Shown here in pieces: positions 10,453-11,369 of a stretch of DNA of 14,832 nt. Source of the DNA: a virus. Taxonomy: Duplodnaviria > Heunggongvirae > Uroviricota > Caudoviricetes. Numbering within the stretch: position 1 is the first letter of the stretch; the number at the start of each line of letters is the position of its first letter. The stretch lies in the IMG/VR virus record IMGVR_UViG_2703719369_000026. One strand, given 5' to 3'. The notes beneath the pieces were generated by a model. It searched no databases. It was not told the origin of the DNA and saw only the letters and a program-made list of their open reading frames with translations. Both the position numbers and the translations under genes were made by a program.

Positions 10453-10471
10453 TCTGATAATTGTATGTGAA

Positions 10472-10822
10472 CTAATAAAATACATTGTCATACGAGTCAC
10501 CTGTACTCCCTGTTGATGCCAGCAGTTTTGCTTCTTTTAGTCGCTCCGTATAGGCCAGTGATACATACTGAGAACCTTTATCACTGTGATGGACTGTGCC
10601 GGACGGCCGACGGGCCCACAACGCCTGCTCCAGTGCATCCAGCACGAATGTCGTTTCCATAGACGATGAGACTCGCCACCCCACGATACATCCGGNNNNN
10701 NNNNNNNNNNNNNNNNNNNNNNNNNNNNNNNNNNNNNNNTAATACGTTGACGGGGCAATATGCAGCTCACTGCATACCGGTCCGACCCCGTACTGCTCAC
10801 GCAGCTTATCCAGCAGTGGCAT
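10472..10822 (-). pseudogene. IS3-family transposase orfB fragment, interrupted by the scaffold gap and truncated at the 3' end
   Basis: Contains the DDE-region motif HSDKGSQY but ends VFY-stop instead of continuing through the catalytic glutamate region. The reading frame spans the N run. Confidence 0.8.
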
Positions 10823-10926
10823 TATTTTTTCCAGAGGCGGTCGAACTCCGCCTTCGCAAAATAAGCGGAAGCCTGGCGAAGGATATCGTTACTGCGGCGC
10901 AGTTCACGATTTTCACGTTCCAGCCA
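10484..10926 (-). mobile_element. IS629/IS1203-like (IS3 family) internal remnant, truncated at both ends
   Basis: The orfA C-terminus (LERENRELRRSNDILRQASAYFAKAEFDRLWKK) is followed by an A-rich frameshift window and orfB (MPLLDKLREQYGVGPVCSELHIAPSTY ... [37 protein letters not shown]). Similarity stops abruptly after DSYDN near 10484 and upstream of LEREN near 10926. No terminal inverted repeats are present. Confidence 0.8.
10696..10739. other. Assembly/scaffold gap (44 N)
   Basis: A run of N characters inside the IS orfB. About 125 codons of a normal orfB are missing here, so the gap is a placeholder of unknown true length. Confidence 0.99.
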
Positions 10927-10979
10927 TAAAGTTATGTTCCTGACGTATGTATTCGTCCCGCAGGAATCAACCAACTGAT

Positions 10980-11369
10980 TTATCTGAATTTATCATGCCC
11001 CTCAACTCTGATTTTATTCATCTTGTTTACCGAATCGGGTATATCTGATAACTGTCCCGATAAGACTTTTTGTTTCGCCAGCATAATCTCTTTTTCAAGC
11101 TTTTGAAGTTCTTTTATATAGTCATTCTTCCCTTCTTCATCAGCCGGTGAAATGCTCTCAGGAAGACGCTTCATTGACTCATCTACAGCATCATCCATTC
11201 TGTCAAGAGCTTCAAGAAGCTCCTTTTTATCCATTGATGACTGAAGTACACTCATATTCCTTGCAAGAACTTGCATGCTTTCATCAAGTTCTTCTGCCAC
11301 TGTAATCCCCCCACACAAAAAATATAATGCCATACCACAGCTGATTATAACTTTATTGCTTTTCTGCAT
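10980..11369 (-). CDS. cybC: Cytochrome b562 family protein (periplasmic, four-helix-bundle haem protein)
   Basis: 129 aa with a signal peptide. A Met near the mature N-terminus (AEELDESMQVL) and a C-terminal His (EGHDKFR) parallel the Met and His haem ligands of E. coli cytochrome b562. AAGGAG ribosome-binding site. Lies 43 nt downstream of the catalase-peroxidase gene. Confidence 0.75.
   Translation of the reverse strand: MQKSNKVIISCGMALYFLCGGITVAEELDESMQVLARNMSVLQSSMDKKELLEALDRMDDAVDESMKRLPESISPADEEGKNDYIKELQKLEKEIMLAKQKVLSGQLSDIPDSVNKMNKIRVEGHDKFR

Follow-up and report, generated by a model that had tools for sequence, protein, structure and literature searches.

A very probable mis-join of Escherichia coli O157:H7 chromosome to pO157 through a shared IS629-like core in a viral scaffold

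Is the Caudoviricetes record IMGVR_UViG_2703719369_000026 one continuous piece of DNA? The window, i.e., the whole stretch of 14,832 nucleotides that was analysed, carries integrase, replication and partition genes on its left and katP and a cytochrome b562 gene on its right, with a run of N inside an insertion sequence (IS) between them. Taken at face value, it would link katP and cytochrome b562 to a prophage ParM module, or would place pO157 in the chromosome. Either reading would be a notable claim on the mobility of EHEC virulence genes, an error that is averted by recognising a predictable artefact. From comparison with closed genomes and drafts we conclude that the window is very probably a chimeric scaffold, in which a piece of E. 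coli O157:H7 chromosome was mis-joined to pO157 through a shared IS core; put at its weakest, the chromosome-to-pO157 join is an unsupported one.

The gap and the two halves of the window

The window has a single N run (10696-10739, 44 bases), located in the minus-strand orfB of an IS629/IS1203-type element (IS3 family), as the earlier note had recognised. That note took 10453-10980 as the IS region; its placement of the gap stands, but the IS-derived stretch is narrower (10485-10924, minus strand), 10453-10980 being the 527-bp space between the stop of the Plasmid_stab_B gene (10138-10452, plus) and that of the cytochrome b562 gene (10980-11369, minus). The bases bordering the run are 383 bp apart both in the EC4115 chromosome (L001 13118-13500) and in TW14359 pO157 (L003 5433-5815), bearing out the 'roughly 375 bp' that the note had thought missing, and the 44 N are too few by 339. 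With flanks that are collinear in the references, at a distance that differs from the N count, the run behaves as a scaffold gap of estimated length. It conceals IS nt 464-846, that is, orfB codons 28-156, which take in the HTH_21 domain and the beginning of rve. The parts of the window, with the genes assigned to them, are:

1-10484, no strand: chromosomal segment, assigned to the left arm of a P2-like prophage adjoining yecA; 0 mismatches to EC4115 and strain 319
1-1002, minus: integrase (annotation/Pfam)
within 1-10484: regulators (annotation)
6275-9097, plus: gpA-type replication endonuclease, Phage_GPA (annotation/Pfam)
9174-10133, plus: ParM (annotation/Pfam)
10138-10452, plus: Plasmid_stab_B, the stability gene (annotation/Pfam)
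10485-10695, minus: left IS core piece, IS nt 1057-847 (orfB codons about 156-225), continuous with the chromosomal flank
10696-10739, no strand: scaffold gap, 44 N for 383 bp by reference distance, IS nt 846-464
10740-10924, minus: right IS core piece, IS nt 463-279, continuous with the plasmid flank
10766-10817, no strand: two diagnostic sites, 10766 (C) and 10817 (T), with the alleles of the pO157 remnant
10925-14832, no strand: pO157 plasmid segment with cytochrome b562, katP, a 61-aa hypothetical ORF and IS91/IS600 remnants (strain 319 pO157)
10980-11369, minus: cytochrome b562 (annotation)
11413-13623, minus: katP (annotation)

The shortfall of the gap (383 - 44 = 339 = 3 x 113) by chance leaves the reading frame intact, and ORF callers therefore run a spurious 116-aa ORF through the N run (10472-10822, minus), which a gene caller could annotate as a false, intact-looking protein.

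Could the N run instead be a mask, or a fixed-length spacer from ordering or concatenation that makes no claim of adjacency? Its 44 bases are indeed unrelated to the true 383 bp, and the description of the genome_contigs collection mentions that some stretches were masked as N. However, a same-length mask would correspond to 44 bp in the references, where 383 bp are observed, and arbitrary concatenation is unlikely to yield collinear, same-strand, correctly ordered contigs within one IS core. Spacers of fixed length mostly come in round numbers, which 44 is not, and an exact-pattern scan of genome_contigs for the N-containing junction gave no match. We regard a mask or spacer as exceedingly improbable, and treat the run as a scaffold gap.

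The two halves match different replicons. In a base-level comparison window 1-10695 had 0 mismatches to the O157:H7 chromosomes of EC4115 and strain 319, and we place it in the prophage arm beside yecA. The match to the O157:H7 chromosome in the whole-window search spanned 1-10924 and that to pO157 spanned 10485-14832, the two overlapping in the IS only. The left unique flank (9174-10484) was chromosomal in 1441 of its 1443 places and on a plasmid in the other 2; the ParM/Plasmid_stab_B flank occurs in 1303 of 5426 complete E. coli genomes. At 10484/10485 lies the chromosomal truncation point, where the 3′ end of the IS (nt 1058-1310) is missing. In intact relatives (L011, L013) the stability gene leads to portal, terminase and capsid genes, and the O157:H7 IS remnant therefore marks a deletion. 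A plasmid backbone was considered for the integrase/replication/partition segment and ruled out, the segment being chromosomal P2-like prophage.

On the right, window 10740-14832 had 0 mismatches to strain 319 pO157 and one (13771) to TW14359 pO157, and the unique flank 10925-13700 was on a plasmid in 487 of 490 places (chromosomal in 3). Here the pO157 truncation point forms the 10924/10925 junction, and the 5′ end of the IS (nt 1-278) is missing. The right end of the window lies inside IS91 and IS600 remnants (13985-14832, by the annotation of L003 9061-10043), stopping within that of IS600, so that the right-hand piece has repeats at both boundaries.

Some features of the prophage arm are of separate interest. 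A ParM/StbA-type actin-like segregation gene with Plasmid_stab_B (9174-10452, plus) in a chromosomally integrated P2-like prophage suggests that phages of this family may also persist in plasmid form; a related, distinct ParM/Plasmid_stab_B pair lies near katP on some non-O157 plasmids (L020, L023). Just upstream of a 'derepression protein' ORF (5600-5830), Rfam matches at gathering score to isrK (5346-5420, plus, 63 bits) and to C4 antisense RNA (5456-5543, plus, 78.5 bits) give the region the look of an immunity module of P1/P7 type (C4/ant-like) set in a P2-type backbone. Three very large PLSDB 'plasmid' records that hold this otherwise-chromosomal prophage segment (NZ_CP114132.1, 438 kb; CP061244.1, 1.41 Mb; CP054248.1, 542 kb) look like chromosome fragments filed as plasmids, and replicon assignment from PLSDB alone would be misled by them.

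Two oppositely truncated remnants and their common core

The IS sequence of the window derives from two annotated IS pseudogenes, so that the underlying biology is already known. The chromosomal remnant runs for 1057 bp from the junction at window position 10485 to the left inverted repeat (IS nt 1-1057), and the pO157 remnant for 1032 bp from the right inverted repeat (TGAACCGCCCCGG...) to the junction at 10924 (nt 279-1310). They overlap in a 779-bp core (nt 279-1057), and jointly rebuild 1057 + 1032 - 779 = 1310 bp, matching the 1.31 kb of IS629 (PMC10758439). The window itself holds IS content from the core only; neither inverted repeat (TGAACCGCCCCGG or its complement) was found in it, and it is thus not a bounded IS629/IS1203 element.

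In coding content the chromosomal parent has the orfA/orfB arrangement with programmed -1 frameshifting of IS3-family IS629/IS1203 elements (IS51 subgroup): a 108-aa orfA (HTH_Tnp_1, PF01527) and a truncated orfB with HTH_21 (PF13276) and rve (PF00665) domains (NCBIfam transpos_IS3 NF033516, 243.5 bits). An ALIL frameshift pseudoknot matches at window 10751-10867 (Rfam RF01497, 120.3 bits), and the orfB start codon is at 10822. Only the last 103 nt of orfA (10822-10924, in the right IS piece) and two pieces of orfB are retained by the window.

The remnants are 99.4% identical to each other (5 of 779 sites differing). Against the full-length copy that strain 319 pO157 carries under the annotation 'IS3-like element IS1203 family', their composite shows 57 mismatches in 1310 positions (95.6% identity), and the core differs from standard full-length copies at about 35 of its 779 sites (~4.5%; measured on copies from the same genomes). 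With such divergence the core, which belongs to a diverged subtype, amounts to a repeat of two copies, and the view of it as a ~20-copy repeat like all IS629 was dropped. On these identities, the two remnants are relics of an IS629 subtype that is older than, or different from, that of the copies active today. The IS comparison covered window 10485-10924 and L007 30695-32004.

Fixed differences between the copies were defined across the three chromosomes and three plasmids compared, and number five:

Core position 212: A in the chromosomal copy, C in pO157; under the N run
Core position 546: C in the chromosomal copy, A in pO157; under the N run
Core position 567: C in the chromosomal copy, A in pO157; under the N run
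Core position 621: T in the chromosomal copy, C in pO157; window 10766, plasmid allele
Core position 672: C in the chromosomal copy, T in pO157; window 10817, plasmid allele

The gap thus covers three of the five sites. At the other two, 10766 and 10817, the window reads C and T where all three chromosomes examined read T and C, and the top 25 chromosomal matches shared an identical bit score of 20082 (19751 + 331), the value that results from two mismatches. Core position 211 is the last base of the left contig piece, the first discriminating site being the very next one, and left of the gap no fixed discriminating site was found among the three chromosomes and three plasmids compared. A T at window 10673 was tried as a chromosome-specific allele and dropped, since the pO157 of FRIK2455 and of strain 319 also have T there. 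With three sites under the N run and the remaining two plasmid-type, the alleles of the window are compatible with a single chromosome-to-plasmid switch.

The join in finished genomes and in drafts

A search of 5,426 complete E. coli genomes and 72,556 plasmids gave no single record with both flanks. We also rebuilt the hybrid junction in gap-filled form (2,179 bp: the 779-bp core with 700 bp of flank on either side); in the 5,426 closed E. coli genomes no place matched it at 80% coverage or more, the best coverage, 68%, being that of the chromosomal junction plus the core. The join was thus absent from every finished assembly searched, and the continuous junction that a cointegrate should show in a closed or long-read assembly was seen only in short-read-like drafts.

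These searches are the comparison with closed genomes carrying the same flanks that the earlier note had proposed, and they brought up no refuting record. Its suspicion of a mis-join at the IS is supported, and its suggestion that the segments could belong to different replicons agrees with the flank counts given above and with closed strain 319, where every determined base of the window is reproduced at 100% identity, one half on the chromosome and the other on pO157. The note had also described the contents of the integrase/replication/partition and katP/IS91 segments correctly; its picture of a single IS copy with a hole between them gives way to one of two oppositely truncated remnants.

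Three drafts (L021, L022 and L026) have katP, cytochrome b562, an IS fragment, the stability gene, ParM and gpA in continuous sequence without N, on contigs of 365-396 kb found through a cytochrome b562 protein look-up, and the same join is therefore present in at least four independent assemblies, the window included. The alleles of these drafts differ. At the five sites L021 has A A A T T (chromosomal, plasmid, plasmid, chromosomal, plasmid), requiring at least three switches, and L022 is chromosomal at 212 and plasmid-type thereafter, with a 25-bp patch (core 99-123) of standard-IS629 alleles in otherwise remnant-type sequence. L026 is plasmid-type at all sites, which is uninformative and compatible with a single crossover. 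The mosaics of L021 and L022 point to a consensus over a collapsed repeat rather than to one crossover. In both, plasmid-derived sequence extends about 13.3 kb from the junction (by arithmetic), a distance that on strain 319 pO157 reaches into the next IS629-like fragment, close to traX and toxB; an end in such a fragment is typical of repeat-bounded short-read contigs. Drafts also often break within the core: L018, the case listed, ends at core position 461, and there are 19 similar places besides.

The alternative is a real fusion of replicons, homologous recombination between the same-orientation IS remnants having put pO157 into the P2-like prophage, with the join correct as it stands. A crossover would leave the two IS pieces collinear and on the same strand, as they are, and for RecA-dependent recombination 779 bp of core at 99.4% identity suffice as a substrate; the junction is moreover continuous in three other drafts, of which L026 fits a single crossover. 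We nevertheless hold such a fusion to be very unlikely, because the junction occurs in 0 of 5,426 closed genomes, the L021 and L022 mosaics require at least three switches or a third IS copy, the gap estimate is off by 339 bp, and the topology of the repeat predicts a false join in any short-read assembly. A literature search on pO157 chromosomal integration and on IS629 mis-assembly likewise returned nothing relevant, including no publication on integration of pO157.

There is accordingly only a slim chance that pO157 is truly integrated in the source strain, and perhaps also in the strains behind L021, L022 and L026. If it were, an EHEC virulence plasmid would be chromosomally fixed, flanked by one doubly truncated IS and one restored, full-length IS. 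The cytochrome b562 gene was on contigs longer than a pO157 in about 20 of the 16,350 collection blocks; a real event at that frequency could well be absent from the few hundred closed O157:H7 genomes, and recurrence in at least four assemblies could also reflect a rare real structure.

Two further records place the same genes in other surroundings. In L025 (GCA_000618885.1 JHIE01000055.1, 449 kb), positions 8001-16390, the pO157 katP/cytochrome b562 flank is joined via an IS to efa1/lifA-like, nleE and nleB genes, which we take to be chromosomal OI-122/SpLE3 content, and its IS core mixes patches of standard-IS629 and remnant alleles; a second type of chromosome-plasmid mis-join, again at this pO157 remnant, is the probable reading. 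In L024 (GCA_047219265.1 CP178336.1, 5.54 Mb, labelled a complete chromosome), positions 1-16390, katP and cytochrome b562 have stx2 subunit genes on one side and Rop, Hok and tail-fibre genes on the other, with only 35 bp of the IS core kept; the record is either an unusual real mosaic or a mis-assembly.

A route to the join and comparison with known systems

For the preferred reading, a chimeric scaffold, we infer a route from the comparison. Directly demonstrated were the identity and replicon of the two flanks, the make-up of the remnants, the real length of the gap, the lack of the join in all closed genomes searched and the mosaic alleles of L021 and L022. Two near-identical remnants cut on opposite sides (nt 1-1057 in the prophage, nt 279-1310 beside katP on pO157) would give the 779-bp core exactly one single-copy neighbour per side, namely the stability gene of the prophage and, opposite, the cytochrome b562/katP region of the plasmid, while its other two neighbours would be short IS ends (253 and 278 bp) resembling roughly 20 other IS629 copies. 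An assembler unable to span 779 bp would collapse the core, and a scaffolder ignoring repeats would chain the two unique contigs through it, leaving an N run where the copies disagree and under-estimating its length (44 instead of 383). With one unique neighbour per side, short-read scaffolders would be led systematically to the false join. Such a route would explain why the join recurs in independent drafts and never in finished genomes, and would account for both the position of the gap at a site of copy disagreement and its poor length estimate.

The value of this result is in quality control. The locus is a trap in O157:H7 draft assemblies, with the same, presumably false, contig in at least three other public drafts, and for downstream use window segments 1-10695 and 10740-14832 should be treated as unlinked and as belonging to different replicons.

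Each remnant has an annotated counterpart with which the window can be compared. The 3′-truncated IS pseudogene of the O157:H7 prophage (ECH74115_RS13550 in EC4115, BFL24_RS13960 in strain 319) is identical to window 1-10695, including the 10484/10485 junction, and differs from the window at 10766 and 10817. Its IS goes on with nt 278-1, up to the left inverted repeat, and has a tail-fibre assembly gene beyond, whereas the window exits at nt 279 into the plasmid. The plasmid copy is exemplified by the 5′-truncated pO157 remnant annotated between espP and cytochrome b562/katP (ECSP_RS29035, TW14359); the strain 319 pO157 remnant is identical to window 10740-14832, including the 10924/10925 junction and the two diagnostic alleles. 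In this remnant the IS goes on with nt 1058-1310, up to the right inverted repeat (TGAACCGCCCCGG...), and espP lies beyond, whereas the window exits at nt 1057 into the prophage.

IS-mediated plasmid integration of the Hfr-type cointegrate kind would give the local order of the window, but no closed genome shows pO157 at this site. Repeat-induced scaffold mis-joins at multi-copy insertion sequences are also known from short-read bacterial assemblies; they share with the window a gap within a repeat, a wrong gap length and flanks from different replicons, and here the false path recurs in other drafts with mosaic consensus alleles. Unlike generic mis-joins at full-length IS copies, this one would owe its occurrence to a two-copy core created by opposite truncations, which would offer the assembler a sole chain of unique contigs.
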